From: Gemmatimonadota bacterium
Lineage (GTDB): Bacteria; Gemmatimonadota; Gemmatimonadetes; Gemmatimonadales; GWC2-71-9
Assembly (NCBI GenBank): GCA_036679645.1
Contig: JAZDCY010000060.1
Location: forward strand, 9,247 to 73,246
Direction: 5' to 3'
Length of the DNA: 64,000 bases
The notes under the pieces are model-generated. The model was given only the letters and a program-made list of their open reading frames with translations, had not been told where the DNA came from and did no database searches. This document shows, piece by piece, positions 21,138-29,242 of this stretch (position 1 is the stretch's first letter; every line of letters starts with the position of its first letter). Made by a program: the position numbers and the translations under genes.

Positions 21138-21503
21138 TCATACGGTACTGTGCGACAAGTGCTCCGCCACAACCTCTTCGAAGGTCGTTCTCGAGACGGC
21201 GTTGTTGGGTATCTGCACGACTCGTATTCCGGCAGCTTTGAGAACAGCGGTCCGGCCTTCGTCGTATGTCTCGCGACTGTCGTGCACGGGTCCGTCAATC
21301 TCCAAAGCGAGCTTGAGTTCGGGGCAATAGAAATCCAGATGGAACCCGCGCATGGGATACTGCCGCCGGAACTTGTAGCCCAATACACGACGTGTTCTGA
21401 GGAGCGCCCAGGCTGCGCGCTCGGCCACGGTCATCTCCTCCCGCAGCCGGCGCGTACGATCTCTCACGGGTCTTCCGAAGAGCATGACGCCAGAATGGAG
21501 CAT
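21138..21503 (-). CDS. DUF559 / Vsr-like endonuclease domain protein
   Basis: LREEMTVAE..W..LR, KFRRQYP, DFYCPELKLALEIDG..H motifs; start uncertain (21485, 21503 or 21536). Confidence 0.85.
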   Translation of the reverse strand: MLHSGVMLFGRPVRDRTRRLREEMTVAERAAWALLRTRRVLGYKFRRQYPMRGFHLDFYCPELKLALEIDGPVHDSRETYDEGRTAVLKAAGIRVVQIPNNAVSRTTFEEVVAEHLSHSTV

Positions 21504-21548
21504 GAGGTACCGGCCTGTGCAACCGTCTTGCCGCACGGCGGTGGCGTT

Positions 21549-21582
21549 TAGCCGCTTCTGAGCGTCTAGCCGTCTAGGCGCC
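21549..21582 (-). repeat. Degenerate octamer tandem repeat
   Basis: TGAGCGTC TAGCCGTC TAGGCGCC, just after the amrB stop; shares CTGAGCGTCTAGC with the 16805-16840 array. Confidence 0.65.
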
Positions 21583-21584
21583 TT

Positions 21585-22412
21585 TCACCTGATCACCACT
21601 CCGGCATATGCCACAACGCTCTCGTCATCTCCGGTCACCCATCCGCTGTGCCGGTAGTCGACGACTTCGGCCGAGGAAGCACCGAGCTGTTTCGCGGCCT
21701 CGATCACGATCGCCGCCGGCGCGCGACCACACATCGTTACGTGCTCGCGATGGCACACCTGCAAGAGAGCCTCGGCTTGGAGGCGTTCGATGGCGGCCAG
21801 CGCATGCTTGTCCTTGTGTGCTGCGCTCGCGGCCGACTCGTAATGAGTCATGTCCGAGGACGCGATCAACAGCACGTCGTCAGATGTCTGACGGACCACG
21901 GCGACCAGTGCGTCCGCGATCGTCCTACAGAAAGCCCAGTCGTCTGATGCGAGCACAATGGGGACAATGCTCGTCGTGTCGCTGAGCAGCTGGAGGAAGG
22001 GAAGCTCGACCTCGATGCTGTGCTCGCCGCCATGCGCGACGGGGTCGTGCGCCATCACGGAGCAGGTGTCGATGAGCGCTTCCGCGAACTCTTTGGCGAC
22101 CTGGAGGTCTCCAAGGGGAGTCTGGAACGCGCCCCGCGCCCACGTTCCGGCGAGTCGTCCGGTCCCCACGCGGCCGCGGTGGTTCGGTCCGACGAGTACG
22201 GTTATGGGCGGGATGGCCAGGCGGCGGAAAACGTGTGCCGCACACTGGCCCGAATAGACGAGCCCGGCGTGGGGTACGATGGCCCCGAAAGCGGGCCCGG
22301 GTTCCCCGTCGGCCCCATCGAGCTGGGTCCGGACGAGATCCTGAAGCTCGTCCCGATCTGCAGGGTAGAAGCGGCCGGCGACGGCGGGGTGGCGGAGATC
22401 GTGTTTGGGCAT
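21585..22412 (-). CDS. amrB: AmmeMemoRadiSam system protein B (MEMO1 family)
   Basis: RHPAVAGRFYP, PHAGLVYSG, GPNH, EHSIEVELPFLQ, ASSDMTHY, TMCG, VVAYAG motifs. Confidence 0.9.
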   Translation of the reverse strand: MPKHDLRHPAVAGRFYPADRDELQDLVRTQLDGADGEPGPAFGAIVPHAGLVYSGQCAAHVFRRLAIPPITVLVGPNHRGRVGTGRLAGTWARGAFQTPLGDLQVAKEFAEALIDTCSVMAHDPVAHGGEHSIEVELPFLQLLSDTTSIVPIVLASDDWAFCRTIADALVAVVRQTSDDVLLIASSDMTHYESAASAAHKDKHALAAIERLQAEALLQVCHREHVTMCGRAPAAIVIEAAKQLGASSAEVVDYRHSGWVTGDDESVVAYAGVVIR

Positions 22413-22489
22413 CGTGTCCGCAGTGTTAGCGCACAGCGGAATTTCCTGCCAAGATAGAGCCCCGAGCCTGATTCTGCGATGCGTGTGCG

Positions 22490-22585
22490 ATTGATTGCTT
22501 GCGCGCCCTAATTGACCGGTTCCGATTCCGAATTGATGCGTTCCATCCCCACATTGACGTTGGCTTGCTTGACGCCGGCTATGTT
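22490..22585 (+). promoter_or_regulatory. Phased direct repeats and -10 element upstream of small lipoprotein 1
   Basis: ATTGAY at 22490, 22511, 22532 and 22553 (exact 21-bp period), TTGCTTG at 22565, then 8 nt, then TATGTT (22580-22585). Confidence 0.6.
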
Positions 22586-22639
22586 CGGCACGGTTGATCG
22601 AACACAGTGAATCTCACACCGGCGTCGGAGGAAGACGGA

Positions 22640-22852
22640 ATGTTGAAGAACAAGATTCGGGCGATCGTGCCCATCGTCGCATTGGTCCTCGTTGCAGCCT
22701 GTTCGGATTCCACAGGCCCCGGGGCGCCGGAACTGGCGGAGATTCAGCAGGAGAGTCCGGAACAGGATCAAGCGAATAGAATACGGGGCATCGACACCGA
22801 CACGAAGCGGAAGACCCCGCTCGATCAAGAGCGCGAAGACAGGGAACGGTAG
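22640..22852 (+). CDS. Small lipoprotein 1 (70 aa)
   Basis: GGAGG RBS at 22627; MLKNKIRAIVPIVALVLVAA-C lipobox; short polar mature part; similar to 25166..25357. Confidence 0.75.
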   Translation: MLKNKIRAIVPIVALVLVAACSDSTGPGAPELAEIQQESPEQDQANRIRGIDTDTKRKTPLDQEREDRER

Positions 22853-22864
22853 CTAGCGGAGAAA

Positions 22865-22950
22865 GCCGGCATACCCTTATCCATCCCACCTGCCACGGAG
22901 CAGTGCCGGCCTTAGGGGGTGTACAGCGAAAACGCTGTGCGCTCCCTCCT
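22865..22950 (+). ncRNA. Candidate structured 3' element (two hairpins), copy 1
   Basis: Stem GCCGGCAT(22865)/GTGCCGGC(22903) encloses CCATC...CGGAGCA; then TTAG and hairpin GGGGGTGTACAGCG-AAAA-CGCTGTGCGCTCCC followed by TCCT. Confidence 0.5.
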
Positions 22951-22997
22951 CCCGTTTTGGGGTGCGCGGTGAGCTGTGCGCGGGTGGGTGGGGGGGG

Positions 22998-24881
22998 TTA
23001 CCCGGCTTGGTGACGTAGAGATTCGTGTCGCTGCTCGAGGCGCTTTCGCTGACCGGGAGTGAGGAGTTCCGACAAGACAACCTCGCGGAGCAACGCGGCC
23101 TCGACGAAATACCGATCTCCATCGAACGAGACGATGTGATGCCGCTCGAGTTGAGCGAGTGCATCTTCGATATCTGAGGTTGCGATATCCAGCAGTCCAC
23201 TCAAGACGTCGGGTTGAACTTCGGAACCGCCGACGCAGGTCCCGACGAGCACGTCCTTTGCGGTGGCACTGAGCAGTTGGACGCGCTCCATGGTAGCCGC
23301 TTTCACTAGCTGCGGGATGTCGAACGGCACCGGAGTTTCGAGCGTGACGTTCTCGAGCGGCCACACAAGCGCCTCGCCACGCAGCGATGAAACCTCGGCG
23401 AGTCCACGCAGCAAGGACACGGTAAGGAACGGATCGCCTCCGGTCTCGAAATCCACGCGCCGCGCGAGGCGGGCCAGTTGCTCCTCCCCGTCACACCAGG
23501 GCGCCATCTCTTGCACGAGCGCGCGGACCTCGTCACCCGAGAACAGCTCGAGCTCGACGGTTCCCCCGGCTAGGCGTCTGCCGACATCCCCCAGGAGCTT
23601 TGTGAGCCCGGTGTATTCACCCTTGGCGTCTTCGCAAGTGCTGAGCACGACGAGGATGGGGCGACCGATAGCCGTGCCAATGGCGCCTCGCAACGCCGAC
23701 AACGTGGCTTCGTCGGCCAGGTGTGCGTCGTCGATGACGACCGCGAGCGGAGTTTCCTCGGCGATCGCCTCGAATAGCCCGCCCAGGGCATTCCCAATAT
23801 CGGTATGGCCGAGCCCGGACATCGGCTCGAACCGTTCCGCCAATCGCGGGACGACCGACGCGAGCATGCGTAGAGCGGTCGGATCGGTCGCGGCAAGACC
23901 CGGCGCATCGAACAGACCGCCTCGCATCAGCTGCCGCAGTGTGCTCCATGGTGTCCCGGGGTCGGTTCCCAGGGGATTGGCCAGCGCGATCATCCCACCT
24001 TCCAATCGCCACCGATTCACGCACTCCGACAGGAGCCGGGTTTTTCCTCGTCCGGCCAGCGCACTCACGACCAGCACGCGGGGACCTTGGGCAAGTGCCA
24101 TGGACAACTCGGTGAATGCGCGGTTGTGCTCCCGCTCCCGCCCCACGAGCGGTGGTTCCGCGTCGGTATGCACCAGCGATGCGCGCCGCCACCGACCTTC
24201 GCGAATCCGCTCGGCCAGGGCGCGCAGCTCCTTGCTGGGCGGCACACTGTACTCGCGCTCTATGTGCCGAGCGAAATCACGATACGTAATGAGTGCGCCG
24301 GAGGAGTCGCCGCTAAGCGCGGATGCGCGCATTTGCAGCCGTACGGCCGCTTCGGCTTCGGCATCGATACCGAGCGCCCGTTGGGCCACAGTCTGAGCGA
24401 CCTCGAACTCAGATGTCGAGAGCGCCTGCTCTCCGCTGTCGATCAACGAAGAGAGACTGCGGTTGCGGAGTCGCGCGCGCTCCTGCTCTAGCCACTGCTC
24501 GAACGCGGGCGCATCGGGAAGGCTCAGGCCGTCGAGGAACTCTCCGTCCCCTTCCCCGTCGCCGAGAGCATCCACGCGCAGTTGCTCGCCGCTCAGCGTG
24601 ATCGCGTCGCCGCGCGAAATGAGGCGCTTGGCGCCAAGTGCGGCCCGCAGCCGGCGCACGGCCTCGTTGAGTGAATGGCGGGCGCGGGCCTGGTCCTTTT
24701 CGGGCCACAACAAGCCCATGAGATGGTCGCGGGACCGTGTGTGCTGCGGCGAAAGTGCGAGATACGCCAATAACGCCACGTGTTTCCGCCACATGACGTC
24801 GGCCGCGGGCTCCTCGCCGTCCACCAGGACGGCCGGGGGCCCGAGGCATCTCATCTCGAGAGATCTGGGTTTCCCGAACAT
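22998..24881 (-). CDS. SARP/BTAD transcriptional activator with P-loop NTPase domain, copy 1
   Basis: wHTH (ALLAYLAL...SRDHLMGLLWPE...ARHSLNEAVRRLR), BTAD (FL.GL...DAPAFEQWL..ER), PLVGRERE, Walker A ALAGRGKT, Walker B VVIDDAH, TGGDPF. Start probably 24881 (track gives 24962). Confidence 0.85.
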   Translation of the reverse strand: MFGKPRSLEMRCLGPPAVLVDGEEPAADVMWRKHVALLAYLALSPQHTRSRDHLMGLLWPEKDQARARHSLNEAVRRLRAALGAKRLISRGDAITLSGEQLRVDALGDGEGDGEFLDGLSLPDAPAFEQWLEQERARLRNRSLSSLIDSGEQALSTSEFEVAQTVAQRALGIDAEAEAAVRLQMRASALSGDSSGALITYRDFARHIEREYSVPPSKELRALAERIREGRWRRASLVHTDAEPPLVGREREHNRAFTELSMALAQGPRVLVVSALAGRGKTRLLSECVNRWRLEGGMIALANPLGTDPGTPWSTLRQLMRGGLFDAPGLAATDPTALRMLASVVPRLAERFEPMSGLGHTDIGNALGGLFEAIAEETPLAVVIDDAHLADEATLSALRGAIGTAIGRPILVVLSTCEDAKGEYTGLTKLLGDVGRRLAGGTVELELFSGDEVRALVQEMAPWCDGEEQLARLARRVDFETGGDPFLTVSLLRGLAEVSSLRGEALVWPLENVTLETPVPFDIPQLVKAATMERVQLLSATAKDVLVGTCVGGSEVQPDVLSGLLDIATSDIEDALAQLERHHIVSFDGDRYFVEAALLREVVLSELLTPGQRKRLEQRHESLRHQAG

Positions 24882-25068
24882 TGTACGCAAGCCGCTGTAA
24901 TATCTCGTTTTGCGGTCAGATGTGGTACTAGACGTCCGGGTTGCATCTGGGTTGTGACTCATTCAGTAGAGCAATACGGGTGAAGTGATCGGAAAGATGC
25001 GAAGAAGGCGGAATGGCGAGAAGGGCGCTTGAGGGCGGGAATAGGTTAAATGGTTATACGACAGTGAG

Positions 25069-25121
25069 TTGACAGCAGTTGGCGGGGGATTGAGAGCTGC
25101 TTGAGGGGTGGTCCCTAGCTT
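25069..25121 (+). promoter_or_regulatory. SARP-box-like phased repeats and -10 upstream of small lipoprotein 2
   Basis: TTGAC 25069, TTGGC 25079, TTGAG 25090, TTGAG 25101 (10/11/11 spacing); last heptamer, then 8 nt, then TAGCTT (25116-25121). Confidence 0.62.
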
Positions 25122-25165
25122 TGCTTTCAGTAAGTGACGGCAATGACCTGCTCTGGAGGCGAACC

Positions 25166-25357
25166 ATGAAAGCCAAGCGCATTTTCCCCGCAATCGCGAT
25201 CACGCTGATCCTCGCTCTTTCTGCCTGCTCAGACGCTCTCGGGCCGACCGGTCAGAACCCAGAAGTCGCCACGGTGCTCGAGAACCAGGACGACTCCAGC
25301 CAGGACGCGCAGGGACAGCAGGGCAAGAAGCAGGATAACCCGCTCGAACAGCAGTAG
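25166..25357 (+). CDS. Small lipoprotein 2 (63 aa)
   Basis: GGAGG RBS at 25155; MKAKRIFPAIAITLILALSA-C lipobox; Q/D-rich mature part; divergent from the BTAD regulator. Confidence 0.78.
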   Translation: MKAKRIFPAIAITLILALSACSDALGPTGQNPEVATVLENQDDSSQDAQGQQGKKQDNPLEQQ

Positions 25358-25376
25358 GGATCGCTGAGAGGTTCTA

Positions 25377-25456
25377 CCGCCGGGAAGATCGACCATCTCG
25401 CCTCGGAGCAAACCGGCGGCCTAGGGGGCGCGGAGGGAAACCTCCCGCCCCTCCTT
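25377..25456 (+). ncRNA. Candidate structured 3' element (two hairpins), copy 2
   Basis: Stem CCGCCGG(25377)/CCGGCGG(25413) encloses CCATC...CGGAGCA; then CTAG and hairpin GGGGCG-C-GGAGG-GAAA-CCTCC-CGCCCC followed by TCCT. Confidence 0.5.
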
Positions 25457-25520
25457 CCTTTCCCCCCAACCCTTCCACACCACCCCCGGTGGGAGGGCGG
25501 AAAGGCGGAAAGAGTAGCCG

Positions 25521-26603
25521 CTATCTGCCGCCTCGCATCCGCTCCACCACCATATTGCCCATGTCGGAGGTCGCGATGCCGCTGCGGGCGTCGGCCGATT
25601 TCACCTGACCGCTCGTGAGGAGGTCCGCGATCGCGTCGTCGATGCGTTTGGCGCCGCTCGTCTCGCCAAGGAAGTCGAGCATCATGCCCGCGGCCGAGAT
25701 GGCGCCGAGTGGGCAGGCGACGTTTTTGCCGGCGTACTTGGGTGCCGAGCCGTGGATCGGCTCGAACATCGACGTCTGACCTGGGTGGATGTTCCCTGAG
25801 GCGGCGATGCCCATGCCGCCCTGGAGCATGGCGCCCAGGTCGGTGATGATGTCGCCGAACAGGTTCGTGGTGACGAGCACGTCGAACCACTCGGGGTTCT
25901 TGATCATCCACATACAGCACGCGTCGACGTACGCGTGGTCCTGCTCAACCTGCGGGAAATCCTCCGCGACTTGCGCGTACACACGCGTCCAGAGGTCGTG
26001 GGGCCGTATGGCGTTCGCCTTGTCGACAAGCATCACACGCGCCTGGTGTCCGTTGCCTTTTTCCTTCGCGCGTCTCTCGGCGAGCTCGAAGGCGTAGCGC
26101 GATGCCCGCTCACAGCCCTTCCATGTGTACACGCCGTTCACGAGGGCAACCTCGTCGGGCGTGTTCTTCTTCAGGTGCCCGCCGATCTGCGCATAGAGTC
26201 CCTCGGTATTCTCGCGGACGACGATGAAGTCGATGTCGTCGGGTCCCTTGCCCTTCAACGGACAGAGGTGCTCGCTATAGAGCTTGATGGGCCGGAGATT
26301 GATGTAGAGATCGAGGCCGAATCGCAGTCCCAGAATGACCGATCGCTCGACCAGCCCAGGCTCGACGTCCGGATGCCCGATGGCGCCGAGCAGTACGGCG
26401 TCGAGCGTGCGCCACTCGTCGATGACCGAGTCGGGGACCAACTCCCTGGTCTTGAGGTAGTAGTCGCCGCTGTAGGGGTAGTCGACCAGTTCGTAGGTGA
26501 ACCCCTCGAGCTTGGCTACAGCCGCGAGGGCTTTGAGCGCTTCGTCGGTGACCTCGGGTCCAATACCGTCACCGGGGAGGACCCCGATCGTGTAGGATGC
26601 CAT
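25521..26603 (-). CDS. leuB: 3-isopropylmalate dehydrogenase (beta-decarboxylating dehydrogenase family)
   Basis: GDGIGPEV, ERSVILGLRFGLDLYINLRP, RENTEG.Y, VDKAN, NLFGDIITD, FEPIHGSAPK motifs. Confidence 0.82.
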   Translation of the reverse strand: MASYTIGVLPGDGIGPEVTDEALKALAAVAKLEGFTYELVDYPYSGDYYLKTRELVPDSVIDEWRTLDAVLLGAIGHPDVEPGLVERSVILGLRFGLDLYINLRPIKLYSEHLCPLKGKGPDDIDFIVVRENTEGLYAQIGGHLKKNTPDEVALVNGVYTWKGCERASRYAFELAERRAKEKGNGHQARVMLVDKANAIRPHDLWTRVYAQVAEDFPQVEQDHAYVDACCMWMIKNPEWFDVLVTTNLFGDIITDLGAMLQGGMGIAASGNIHPGQTSMFEPIHGSAPKYAGKNVACPLGAISAAGMMLDFLGETSGAKRIDDAIADLLTSGQVKSADARSGIATSDMGNMVVERMRGGR

Positions 26604-26621
26604 TGCGCGTGTGGTAGTGGG

Positions 26622-27278
26622 TCAGAAGCCGAAGGAGAGCCCAATCGAGATGACCGGATAGTACTTGAACAGATTGAGATCGTCCTCCGCGGCGGCCACT
26701 TCCCGGTCGAGGTCGGCCTGGAAGCCTGGCGTCTGGGAGATCGGACCGTTCGCCGTGAACGTCACGTCGGGCTGTCCCTGAAAGGCGACGCCCAAGTCGA
26801 GGATGAACCCGATCCGTCCGCTGGCGATGTTCCCCCATCCGATGCCGATGTAAGGCGCGATGTCGTTGTTGACGATCGTCCCGGTCAGGCTACCGACATC
26901 TGTTCCCGCGTAGGTGGAATCCCCGATATCAACCGTTCCCGTGAATACGCCGGTGATGTCGAGATCCGGTGAGGAGAACAAGACGCCGCCGCTCACGCGG
27001 AACTGACCCGCGAGAAAGAGGTCGACGAATCCGACGAACTGCGGTGAGGGAAGGTCGACCGTGAAGTCGATGTCCGAGATCGTGAGATCGATATCCGATG
27101 GGAAGATGCCACCGCCGACGCGCAAGGTGACCCGATCGTGCACCGCGATGCCGATGTCCGCACCCAATCCCAGCGTGCCGACGTGGGGCGCCACGCCAAA
27201 GCTCGGGCCTTGGGCCAGGATTGGAGCGGGCGCCGTCGCCACAGCGAGGCACGCGAAGAGGGTCAGCAGGCGTGTCAT
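26622..27278 (-). CDS. Outer-membrane beta-barrel protein
   Basis: Signal peptide MTRLLTLFAC..., GTLGLG, PYIGIGWG, amphipathic strands, terminal YPVISIGLSFGF. Confidence 0.75.
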   Translation of the reverse strand: MTRLLTLFACLAVATAPAPILAQGPSFGVAPHVGTLGLGADIGIAVHDRVTLRVGGGIFPSDIDLTISDIDFTVDLPSPQFVGFVDLFLAGQFRVSGGVLFSSPDLDITGVFTGTVDIGDSTYAGTDVGSLTGTIVNNDIAPYIGIGWGNIASGRIGFILDLGVAFQGQPDVTFTANGPISQTPGFQADLDREVAAAEDDLNLFKYYPVISIGLSFGF

Positions 27279-27346
27279 AGATATGCTCCAAGTCTTACGG
27301 GAGTTCGATAATCGCCGGCCGGGTGAGATCGTTGACCGGTACGGAC

Positions 27347-29242
27347 CTAATCTAATCGCGTGCGTGCGCCGGACCACTCTGCGAAACGTGTCTCGAAGCG
27401 CTTGCGGCGGCTGGGTGTCAGGAACTCGCCGCGTATTACCGCGGCAATGATCGGAGCTTCCAAGTGGAACCGATCTCCGTCGAACACCACGAACCGGTGC
27501 CGTTCGAGTTCCTCGAGACCACGATCTACGGTGGCCGCGTCGAGTTCCGTGAGAGCGACGATCGCCTCGGGGTCGATGACGCGCGGCCCGATCGTCGCCG
27601 CGACCAGAACGTGACGCCCCTGCTCGGAAAGCTCGTTTGCCCGAGCAATCGTCATGAGCCGGACGAGTTCCGGAACGTCGAATGGAACGGCTGAATCGAT
27701 CGTATGACGTGGAGGCGGCCACTGGGTCGCGTCCTCGCGGAGCGCTGTCACGCGGCGGAGACCCTGCAACAACGTGGTTGCGAGGAGTGGGTTCCCGCTC
27801 GTCTCGTACCAGACCCGGCGTGCGAGCCGGTCGCGCTGCTCATCGTCGGGGCACCAATCAGCCAGCAGCATGACGAGCGACGTGATATCGGCCTCGGTAA
27901 GGGGACCGAGGCGAACGATCATTCCCGGCAGACGACGGCCGATTTCCCCGACCAATCCGATGCGGCTACCTTGTGCGGTCCCGCCGTCCGCGGCGGCAAC
28001 GGCCAGCAGCACCGGCTCGTCGCGTAGCTGGCCCATGGCTGCCTGCCAGGCTCCCAACGTGCTGGCGTCCGCCCAATGCCCGTCGTCCACGACGATCGCC
28101 ACCGGCTGCTCTTCGGCGACCGCTCGGATGAGCGACACGAGTGCCGTGGCGACGTGTGCGTGATCCAGCGCCGGCGAGGGATCCGCTCGTTCGCACAGCT
28201 CCGGTATGACGCTCGCGAGCACCGCGAGGGCGGCGGGATCTGTTCCGGCGAGCCCGGGGGCGTCGAGTAGACCTCCGCGGGCCAGCGCGCGCAACGTGCT
28301 CCACTCGGCATCACGATCCTGTTCCAGCGCGCGACCGACCGCGAGCAAACCGCCGTCGAGTTGCCAGCGATTCACGCACTCGCTCAGAAGACGAGTCTTT
28401 CCACTTCCGCTGTCACCGAGTACGGCGGCGGTGCGGCTCGCTCCCCGAAAAGCCTCCCCTACGAGCCGGAAGATCTCCTCGTGCACGGCGGCCCGGCCGA
28501 CGAGCGGGGGATCCACATCCGGCGACGCCACCGAGCGTCGGCGCCAGCGCCCGTTGCGGATGCGCTCCGCGAGCGCCGTCAGCTCGCGGCTGGGATCCTC
28601 GGCGAACTCCGCCTCGAGACGGTTGGCGAATTCGTGGAACCCGCGTAGCGCACCGGCAGCATCCCCCGCCAAGGTCGCGGCGCGCATCCGCAACCGCGCG
28701 GCCGGCTCGGAGTACGGGTCGAGCGCAAGCACGCGGGCTGCCGCCTCGTGCGCCTCGGCAAACCGCAGCGCGGCCAGCTCCCGCTCGCCGGTCCGCAACA
28801 AGGCCGAACTTGCCTGGGTCCGATGTCGCCCGCGCTCGGCCATGACCCAATCCTCAAAGGCCGGGGCGTCGTCGAGGGTCAGGCCCTCCAGGAAATCCCC
28901 GCGCGTAAGCGCCCGCTCGAGATCGTCCGCGTCGACGGAAAGTGCGGTGTCGTCGAGCGTGAGTGTGTCGCCCTTCGAGCGGATTCGGTCTGTCCCGAGT
29001 CCGGAGCGGAGTCGCCGCACCGCCTCGTTGAGTGAGTGGCGCGCCTTCGTCTGGTCCTTTTCGGGCCAGAGGAGCCCGAGCAGGTGTTCCCGCGACCTGG
29101 TCCGGTCGGGCGAGAGCGCCAGGTAGGCCAACAGCGCCACGTTCTTGCGCCATAGCACGTCCGTGGGCGGCTCCGCTCCGTCGATCCGGATGACCGGAGG
29201 GCCGAAACACCGGAGCTCCAGGGTCGGCAACTGATCGGGCAT
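27347..29242 (-). CDS. SARP/BTAD transcriptional activator with P-loop NTPase domain, copy 2
   Basis: Start MPDQLPTLELRCFG; collinear paralog of 22998..24881 (LLWPEKDQ..ARHSLNEAVRRLR; GDSGSGKT; IVVDDGH; TSGNPL). Confidence 0.85.
   Translation of the reverse strand: MPDQLPTLELRCFGPPVIRIDGAEPPTDVLWRKNVALLAYLALSPDRTRSREHLLGLLWPEKDQTKARHSLNEAVRRLRSGLGTDRIRSKGDTLTLDDTALSVDADDLERALTRGDFLEGLTLDDAPAFEDWVMAERGRHRTQASSALLRTGERELAALRFAEAHEAAARVLALDPYSEPAARLRMRAATLAGDAAGALRGFHEFANRLEAEFAEDPSRELTALAERIRNGRWRRRSVASPDVDPPLVGRAAVHEEIFRLVGEAFRGASRTAAVLGDSGSGKTRLLSECVNRWQLDGGLLAVGRALEQDRDAEWSTLRALARGGLLDAPGLAGTDPAALAVLASVIPELCERADPSPALDHAHVATALVSLIRAVAEEQPVAIVVDDGHWADASTLGAWQAAMGQLRDEPVLLAVAAADGGTAQGSRIGLVGEIGRRLPGMIVRLGPLTEADITSLVMLLADWCPDDEQRDRLARRVWYETSGNPLLATTLLQGLRRVTALREDATQWPPPRHTIDSAVPFDVPELVRLMTIARANELSEQGRHVLVAATIGPRVIDPEAIVALTELDAATVDRGLEELERHRFVVFDGDRFHLEAPIIAAVIRGEFLTPSRRKRFETRFAEWSGARTRLD

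Follow-up and report, generated by a model that had tools for sequence, protein, structure and literature searches.

A candidate SARP-STAND-controlled unit of Gemmatimonadota that joins tiny lipoproteins to a conserved 3' RNA element

What is made by two short transcription units that bracket a regulator gene in a Gemmatimonadota genome, and what would switch them on? The question arises from a 64,000-nucleotide stretch of DNA (the window; G000:C58:9247-73246, where G000 is the window's own genome of 4.05 Mb). In each unit, phased repeats precede a tiny lipoprotein gene that is followed by a structured element, and two genes for SARP-STAND regulators lie close by. The reading preferred here, with a probability of about 0.5, is that a SARP activates a short transcript with two predicted outputs, a lipid-anchored peptide and a C-rich small RNA. 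Support for it was drawn from the regulator domains, the promoter motif and its spacing, co-occurrence within the regulator clade, purifying selection on the peptides, and the presence of the RNA domain alone behind the same promoter. The parts concerned are as follows.

22490..22570, + strand: repeat array of unit 1, with ATTGA at 22490, 22511, 22532 and 22553 (21-bp steps) and TTG at 22565
22580..22585, + strand: -10 box of unit 1 (TATGTT), 20 bp past the -38 hexamer; transcription start predicted near 22592
22640..22852, + strand: micro-lipoprotein 1, 70 aa; lipobox Cys21, ribosome site at 22627, polar low-complexity mature part
22865..22955, + strand: 3' RNA element 1, comprising stem P1 (7 bp, 22865-22871 with 22904-22910), a 32-nt C-rich loop, a 3-nt linker, P2 (15-bp hairpin, 22914-22947) and a pyrimidine tail
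22998..24881, - strand: SARP-STAND regulator 1, 627 aa, from domain search and structure model
25069..25121, + strand: promoter of unit 2, with TTGA at 25069, 25090 and 25101 and the -10 box TAGCTT at 25116; start predicted near 25128
25166..25357, + strand: micro-lipoprotein 2, 63 aa; lipobox Cys21, ribosome site at 25155
25377..25462, + strand: 3' RNA element 2, comprising P1 (7 bp, 25377-25383 with 25413-25419), a 29-nt loop, a short linker, a 12-bp P2 and a pyrimidine tail
27347..29242, - strand: SARP-STAND regulator 2, 631 aa, with the same domains and recognition helix as regulator 1

A sequence-only reading of this DNA had placed two tiny lipoprotein genes on either side of a BTAD-NTPase gene; their positions, ribosome sites and lipoboxes were confirmed, unit 1 being convergent with the regulator 1 gene and unit 2 divergent from it. 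The second BTAD-NTPase gene that it had placed 2 kb away lies 2.0 kb beyond unit 2, and its product is 48% identical to regulator 1. A public DNA contig, which may stem from the source sample, matches positions 21500-25763 with zero differences; the contigs of two public runs bear on the assembly only, not on expression, and no RNA run with this sequence was listed among the public runs.

The regulators were characterized by domain, fold and phylogeny. Pfam assigned Trans_reg_C (PF00486), BTAD (PF03704) and AAA_16 above the cut-off to both proteins, and the order in regulator 1 is an OmpR-type winged helix, BTAD, the AAA_16 NTPase, a helical domain and a winged helix, with the C-terminal sensor absent. 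EmbR and AfsR were the nearest solved relatives in a profile search. The predicted structure of the regulator (predicted local distance difference test, 86.9) resembles the SARP domain of AfsR and also the ATPase modules of Apaf-1, CED-4, ZAR1 and the maltose-system regulator MalT. Judged by size and domains (winged helix, BTAD, STAND ATPase, no sensor), both regulators are medium SARPs. That class is outlined in PMC10972967 by a nucleotide-binding domain after the SARP domain, about 600 residues and no tetratricopeptide repeats (TPR); the window proteins have 627 and 631 residues, AAA_16 and both Walker A and Walker B motifs, whereas the definition there names NB-ARC.

A tree was built from 80 proteins (those of 78 of the 80 loci with relatives of the regulators, two partial rows being left out, and the window's two). 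It placed 72 proteins in one clade and eight in an outgroup; 76 of the 80 relatives are labelled Gemmatimonadota. The window's pair clusters with L057, L062 and L109 (support 97), and all of these are without the C-terminal extension of about 85 residues that is present in most others. That extension is itself only 71-96 residues long, and no TPR family passed the cut-off in the three extended orthologs scanned; the window proteins, which both end after the winged helix, have no TPR region. The His of an MHD-type latch was found in none of the 72 clade rows and none of the eight outgroup rows (regulator 1 has Ala) and is kept in both other paralogs aligned. The column was assigned through these two paralogs and not through AfsR, and its equivalence to AfsR H603 is inferred. 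Because the TPR region and the F/Y-HD latch are missing, the regulators are, as far as sequence can tell, not AfsR-like large SARPs of the NLR type. Alteration of that latch is reported to make AfsR constitutively active (bioRxiv 10.64898/2026.09.02.748808). Since the window's subclade lacks the sensor domain as well as the MHD latch, switching by ligand in the manner of AfsR is doubted, and it seems somewhat more probable that the activity of the regulator would be set by its own level or by phosphorylation.

The promoter motif was derived de novo by sampling 30 upstream regions, and it is rigid: TTGAC, a second repeat 21 bp on, TTG a further 11 bp on and a TAGCTT-type box 15 bp later. With the box as -12..-7, the repeats begin at -59, -38 and -27, about where the last three repeats of unit 1 fall. 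In leave-one-out tests, 23 of the 25 training sites scored 20.7-44.3 and two failed. When the matrix was trained without the window's sites, unit 2 was the top site in the 4.05-Mb genome (33.5) and unit 1 the fourth (20.5); the maximum scores in three genome shuffles were 22.3, 19.4 and 18.3. The score of unit 1 alone is within these chance extremes, and its promoter is supported because it lies 109 nt before the start and has an ortholog in the same-genus genome G042. No canonical sigma-70 promoter was found at 22400-25600. The phased repeats and -10 box proposed earlier upstream of each lipoprotein gene were confirmed, and the suggestion of SARP-type control through helically phased repeats upstream of -10 is supported. 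Sites scoring >17 were present in 37 of the 80 loci, and in the 17 loci not used for training they stood before full-size exported proteins (10), micro-lipoproteins (2) or no open reading frame (ORF; 5). A one-mismatch pattern gave 26 matches in 151 genomes against 17 in a reversed control; for this reason, only the 10 exact matches and the matrix scores were used.

The spacing can be compared with that of afsS, where the AfsR repeats are reported at -40..-30 and -29..-19, over a poor -35 element at -38..-33, with R92 reading T-38 and T-27 and T88 contacting the template base at -36 (PMC10936776). The motif found here carries T at both -38 and -27, with the same 20 bp from the -38 hexamer to -10, and its repeats are 11 and 21 bp apart upstream of -10, where direct repeats 11 or 22 bp apart are the mark of medium-SARP operators. 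Equivalents of AfsR W74, R92 and R94 are kept in these regulators. The R92 equivalent, R77, is kept in 71 of the 72 clade rows, and the position is V or F in all eight outgroup rows, whose loci are without the promoter motif; the patterns used in the homolog search spanned the recognition helix only up to R76, so N72 and E73 were partly selected and R77 was not. A paralog on contig C7 has Gln at the T88 position, where the window clade has Glu, and its locus carries TTCAC repeats on the same 0/+21/+32/+47 grid before two of its three small peptide genes, the only two matches to that grid pattern in the genome. R77 and the TTCAC paralog lend indirect support to the predicted binding of the repeats and activation by the regulators. 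By analogy with AfsR on afsS, it is very probable that regulator protomers would occupy the -38 and -27 repeats and bring in RNA polymerase, with further protomers sitting upstream at 21-bp steps.

Some related loci were observed in passing. The C7 paralog locus, L002 (G000:C7:251222-254629), encodes three tandem 47-51-aa peptides sharing ELEERIAP (ORFs 439-582, 760-915 and 931-1080, - strand) with a weak NHLP-clan match. They are divergent from the other BTAD-NTPase gene, TTCAC repeats stand at two of them, transport-like genes come next, and the opposite flank holds a large enzyme-like gene; this is likely a RiPP-type cluster (ribosomally synthesized and post-translationally modified peptide) under the paralogous SARP. 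The genome's second-best promoter site (31.2; G000:C7:19715, - strand) is followed after 128 nt by a 66-aa ORF that has several cysteines but lacks a signal peptide and may be a remote member of the regulon. At L071, the same promoter stands 212 nt past the regulator stop (- strand) before a 42-aa peptide that has a hydrophobic stretch and no lipobox.

The peptides were then compared across loci. Both window ORFs have, by pattern, a basic N-terminus, a hydrophobic core, a lipobox Cys and a ribosome site, as do 30 others. The twins had been called paralogous; the proteins align weakly, and the similarity of the coding DNA alone was equalled by 45 of 1000 shuffles. A pattern-based filter (lipobox plus ribosome site, ORFs beside the regulators in the 80 loci) retained 29 micro-lipoprotein ORFs of 43-81 aa in 24 loci, so that the recurrence beside such regulators in other genomes anticipated by the sequence-only reading was found; a 25th locus surfaced in the promoter scan. 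Convergent ORFs lying no more than 438 nt from the regulator stop made up 24 of the 29 (22 loci), the remainder being four divergent and one same-strand, and 28 of the 29 were recorded as opposite to the regulator's strand. None was found beside the regulator in the eight outgroup loci, and a similar, somewhat stricter filter gave nine ORFs in the whole 4.05-Mb genome, six of them with a ribosome site. The trait is spread over many tree branches, several of the loci being close kin. Twin units around one regulator are present in the window, but elsewhere in only some loci.

The ortholog of unit 1 in G042 is on a different contig, where it adjoins a copy of the final codons of the regulator gene, and micro-lipoprotein 1 is 61% identical to its counterpart there, with a ratio of nonsynonymous to synonymous substitution rates (dN/dS) of 0.31. 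The ratio was 0.08-0.73 in eight further pairs, and thus below 1 in nine of nine (point estimates from short genes), which shows the predicted peptides to be under purifying selection. Their mature parts are 26-64 residues long and rich in P, S, A, G, T, Q, E and D. For the micro-lipoproteins, neither Pfam nor NCBIfam gave a family above its cut-off; protein searches with micro-lipoprotein 2 gave three matches each, and the Atlas matches all scored <0.9. In a separate observation on G042 (L148 = C77, L037 = C88), unit 1 adjoins the copied codons and the small genes after the intact regulator are unrelated, an arrangement that looks like insertion at the regulator's 3' end.

The peptide resembles the lipidated tether of an ordinary surface lipoprotein minus its payload, and full-size lipoproteins with similar first residues do stand behind the same promoter. 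It could be argued from this that the micro-lipoproteins are functionless, decayed stubs of the regulon's ordinary surface lipoproteins, and the motif C-x(3-5)-[GEAD]-P, present in 24 of the 29 micro-lipoproteins, also occurs in 26 of the genome's 105 large lipoproteins. The higher frequency of the motif in the small proteins speaks against decay, as do their sizes of 43-81 aa throughout many tree branches, the dN/dS values and the extra cysteines, which occur in pairs only (exactly two in 14 of 32 micro-lipoproteins, none in 18). The stub explanation is accordingly given hardly any credence.

A second explanation would make the micro-lipoprotein, through its signal peptide or mature part, a feedback signal to the regulator or to a neighbouring Ser/Thr kinase. 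Its model is AfsS, the small product of an adjacent target gene, which is reported to bind AfsR (PMC10832544), and the mature parts are lineage-specific. Kinase motifs were found in 35 of the 80 loci, to be read beside the 93 in the window's whole genome; the nearest to the window's regulators is 14 kb away, and kinases stand beside all eight peptide-less outgroup regulators. Moreover, the peptide carries export features and the regulator lacks a membrane segment, and at least eight units have no peptide. Feedback of this kind is considered very unlikely. A complex prediction for regulator 1 with the micro-lipoprotein alignment returned no answer (0.00 against a mark of 0.32) and is evidence neither way. 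As an observation on the sister group, the outgroup loci (L114, L115, L116, L128, L131, L132, L134 and L136) have a Ser/Thr kinase motif in eight of eight, V or F at the R92 position of the regulator, and no repeat promoter.

The 3' element was examined in the same way. The similarity of the two window copies was equalled by only 5 of 1000 shuffles and both fold into two stems, so the homologous two-hairpin element claimed behind each lipoprotein gene holds. Nine chosen copies share a stem of 6-9 bp that encloses a loop of 29-38 nt, then a linker of 0-7 nt and a hairpin of 11-15 bp. Exact element patterns matched only the window's genome among 401 genomes of the order; among 401 family genomes they matched the window's genome, G042 and two chance positions inside genes. 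A single metagenome match to the exact pattern was judged to be chance. Between unit 1 and G042 the loop core is identical at 20 of 21 positions, compared with 118 of 271 four-fold sites of the regulator gene (P about 7e-7, for a stretch chosen after the fact), and the word C-x-ACC was present in nine of the nine loops examined.

An RNA model (R1) was built from four lipoprotein-linked copies, namely the two window copies and those of G042 and L062. In 553,377 bases, the next-ranked matches were L061, L065 and L123 (E 0.005, 0.005 and 0.026), which are three of the five promoter-driven stretches without an ORF; the remaining two were not recovered by R1 at the expected place. A second model (R2), built from eight copies, was run on 150 whole genomes with 28 candidates scored per genome, and matched ten: four training genomes, four new strong matches (G001, G039, G057 and G102) and two that were weak and false. 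All four new strong matches adjoin a regulator gene or a fragment of one, and upstream promoter scores were 26.9 in G001, 30.0 in G039 and 23.0 in G102, where 13 of 18,282 background windows exceeded 12; in G102 a 64-aa micro-lipoprotein lies between promoter and element. In 100 stored loci R2 gave six matches, one of them directly behind a 62-aa micro-lipoprotein (promoter score 20.9). The total is 14 copies, six behind micro-lipoproteins and eight alone. The six are units of promoter, ORF and element in that order, with a structured, conserved domain 3' of the ORF. P1 is 96.3% paired over the 14 copies, with two-sided changes at two of its six pairs (equalled by 0 and 1 of 500 shuffles under two measures, relatedness not removed). 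The conserved 3' RNA of the sequence-only reading is thereby supported, with the addition that it also occurs alone behind the same promoter. The proposed three-part unit fared less evenly: its parts are real but can occur apart, for the element is missing behind most micro-lipoproteins, and genes for full-size exported proteins also stand behind the promoter.

These findings could be accommodated if the element were only a stabiliser or a barrier between convergent transcripts, with ORF-less units damping the regulator gene by convergent transcription. Most units do face the regulator's 3' end (24 of the 29 ORFs, and L061, L064, L065, G039 and G057), P2 ends in a U-run in several stand-alone copies, and the target scan gave no clear signal. 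Against it stands the sequence conservation of the unpaired loop, both in the comparison with G042 and in the C-x-ACC word; the element is also retained in window unit 2, L062 and L123, although these are divergent from the regulator. This explanation is regarded as unlikely. Short conserved loop words in a fixed stem could also mark an RNA that binds protein instead of base-pairing, serving as a decoy either for the regulator or for some RNA-binding protein. The genome encodes CsrA, and Hfq was not found in it (92.7% complete). However, A(N)GGA words numbered 54 in 32 coding parts against 52.7 expected, and each element holds at most one or two. A protein-binding role is given only a slim chance.

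Several specific identities for the element were considered and rejected. No match at the gathering score was obtained in Rfam 15, only chance matches far below it, and known riboswitches were ruled out on that basis. A ribozyme of the hepatitis delta virus type was rejected because inspection by eye showed no P1.1 pairing directly after P1 and no catalytic J4/2 strand with a P2 pseudoknot partner behind it, and because there was no Rfam match, and a CsrB/RsmZ-type sponge because GGA words are not enriched in the coding parts and number one or two per element. Translation past the stop codon into the element was dismissed as well: three copies do have the loop core in frame, but third positions are invariant and the conserved bases next to it change frame. 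Across four transcripts, base-pairing between the 3' end and the ribosome site of the same transcript was not consistent. A model match at L079, similar to the loop core, seems to be part of a kinase coding sequence and was put down to chance. Just past the regulator stop in L073, L079, L080 and L085, a simpler two-hairpin sequence with a short pyrimidine loop directly follows the promoter or, in L079, a micro-lipoprotein; the RNA models do not match it, and it is possibly a reduced form of the element. Two different short tandem-type repeats at about 22961-22984 and 25488-25512 occur in dozens of copies genome-wide and are not part of the 3' element.

A number of results weigh against a SARP-driven transcript with peptide and RNA outputs. 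No promoter site was found within about 4 kb in 43 of the 80 loci, and in the 10 of 17 non-training loci noted above it precedes ordinary full-size exported proteins or lipoproteins. Among the regulators, the Walker A Lys, present in both window proteins, is replaced by Arg in 24 of the 72 clade members. Several micro-lipoprotein genes overlap the regulator's end, and R2 had no match behind most of the other micro-lipoproteins, only a minority of which carry the element. The strong RNA match in G057 has an upstream promoter score of just 4.0. The two-sided changes in P1 are limited to two pairs in related copies; in a smaller copy set there was one such pair (59 of 500 shuffles), and RNAalifold on the plain alignment did not recover P1. 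A loose two-stem descriptor was unspecific, with 52 matches in the genome. The P2 hairpins of the window fail a terminator scan on both strands, and the target scan, which used crude gene starts, showed no clear preference for start regions.

CpxR is of the OmpR type and binds direct repeats, and RNAIII also encodes a peptide. In cpxP/CpxQ, under CpxR in Escherichia coli, a short transcript is reported to give a small exported protein and a 3'-derived small RNA (PMC4817254), as is predicted here by analogy. The two systems are unrelated in sequence, and the present one differs in having a one-component SARP-STAND regulator in place of a two-component pair, a lipoprotein product, an RNA that also stands as its own gene, and no Hfq found. 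RsaE and RNAIII of Staphylococcus aureus likewise have unpaired C-rich words between stems and are reported to pair with ribosome-binding sites independently of Hfq (PMC2790875); the present element has no Rfam match and its loop word is not UCCC. LptM is a precedent for the peptide, as a few lipidated residues and a disordered tail can form a complete functional unit there, and its first nine mature residues are reported to suffice (bioRxiv 10.1101/2025.01.03.631273). The window peptides share with LptM their small size and a Gly-Pro near the Cys predicted to be lipidated, but the NCBIfam score is 12.7 against a cut-off of 27.7, over the signal region only, and the LptM motif (the N-terminal nonapeptide) is absent.

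The closest known layout overall is that of AfsR and its adjacent small target afsS in Streptomyces coelicolor (PDB 8HVR, 8K60; PMC10936776, PMC10972967), in which the regulator joins a SARP domain to a STAND ATPase; in both cases regulator and operator belong to the SARP type and the target is an adjacent small gene, although activation is predicted here. The present system differs in being from Gemmatimonadota, in carrying AAA_16 instead of NB-ARC, in lacking the F/Y-HD latch and the TPR region (nothing in the window proteins, about 85 residues in most orthologs), in the extra repeat 21 bp upstream, and in a target that is a lipoprotein and/or structured RNA and not a cytoplasmic protein. 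The medium SARPs CdaR, CpkO and FdmR1 are reported to have the same size of about 600 residues and only SARP and nucleotide-binding domains (PMC10972967), whereas the present regulators lie outside a biosynthetic cluster, have an AAA_16-type ATPase and have predicted targets of the envelope type. The layout had been noted as matching no described system, but a SARP ATPase with a small target gene next to it is known from AfsR-afsS. The earlier interpretation is partly supported overall, and the stand-alone RNA and the missing latch extend it; the function in signalling or envelope stress that it suggested is a possibility.

The preferred reading can be set out as a sequence of predicted steps. 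Once the regulator had been recruited to the repeats, one short transcript would yield a lipidated, disordered peptide and a 3' small RNA. The element is taken to be a small RNA because its C-rich loop is kept unpaired and because it exists without an ORF. By analogy, the loop may pair with G-rich ribosome-binding regions of mRNAs and lower their translation without Hfq, a proposal to which slightly less than even odds are assigned. That the peptide would act through its first residues on lipoprotein sorting or the outer-membrane machinery is rather unlikely. The promoter's other targets, being exported or lipid-anchored, point to the cell surface, and the whole would be a cell-surface homeostasis module. 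More broadly, and tentatively, the unlatched SARP-STAND clade may run a modular cassette whose core is a new small-RNA family, with a micro-lipoprotein ORF gained or lost in front of it. Paralogs would use the same grid with another five-base word, readable from the recognition helix, for other peptides. This broader scheme as a whole is considered less likely than not.

The remaining genes near the units are as follows.

25521..26603, - strand: isocitrate/isopropylmalate dehydrogenase family gene, a bystander, convergent with unit 2
26622..27281, - strand: outer-membrane beta-barrel-like gene directly after regulator 2, with a weak CarO match (E 4e-12) below the cut-off

A scan with the promoter matrix found no repeat promoter at the beta-barrel-like gene. 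Farther off, a 132-aa ORF at 21138-21536 (- strand) is inserted between aconitase-family and Memo-family genes and may encode a small endonuclease-domain protein.

Literature searches turned up no account of the clade, its peptides or its RNA, although catalogues of predicted RNA motifs in supplements or subscription journals could hold the element, and nothing was found in print on these regulators in Gemmatimonadota, an abundant and mostly uncultured phylum. The clade gains an operator with exact coordinates, a tiny lipoprotein family outside Pfam and NCBIfam, and an RNA family outside Rfam. The missing His latch suggests natural counterparts of the always-on AfsR variants recently made by mutation, and the same RNA domain, which occurs by itself as well as at the 3' end of a peptide mRNA, offers a natural series for the origin of dual-function RNAs. 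If true, the modular cassette would give this phylum a general means of controlling its cell surface with small peptides and RNAs.

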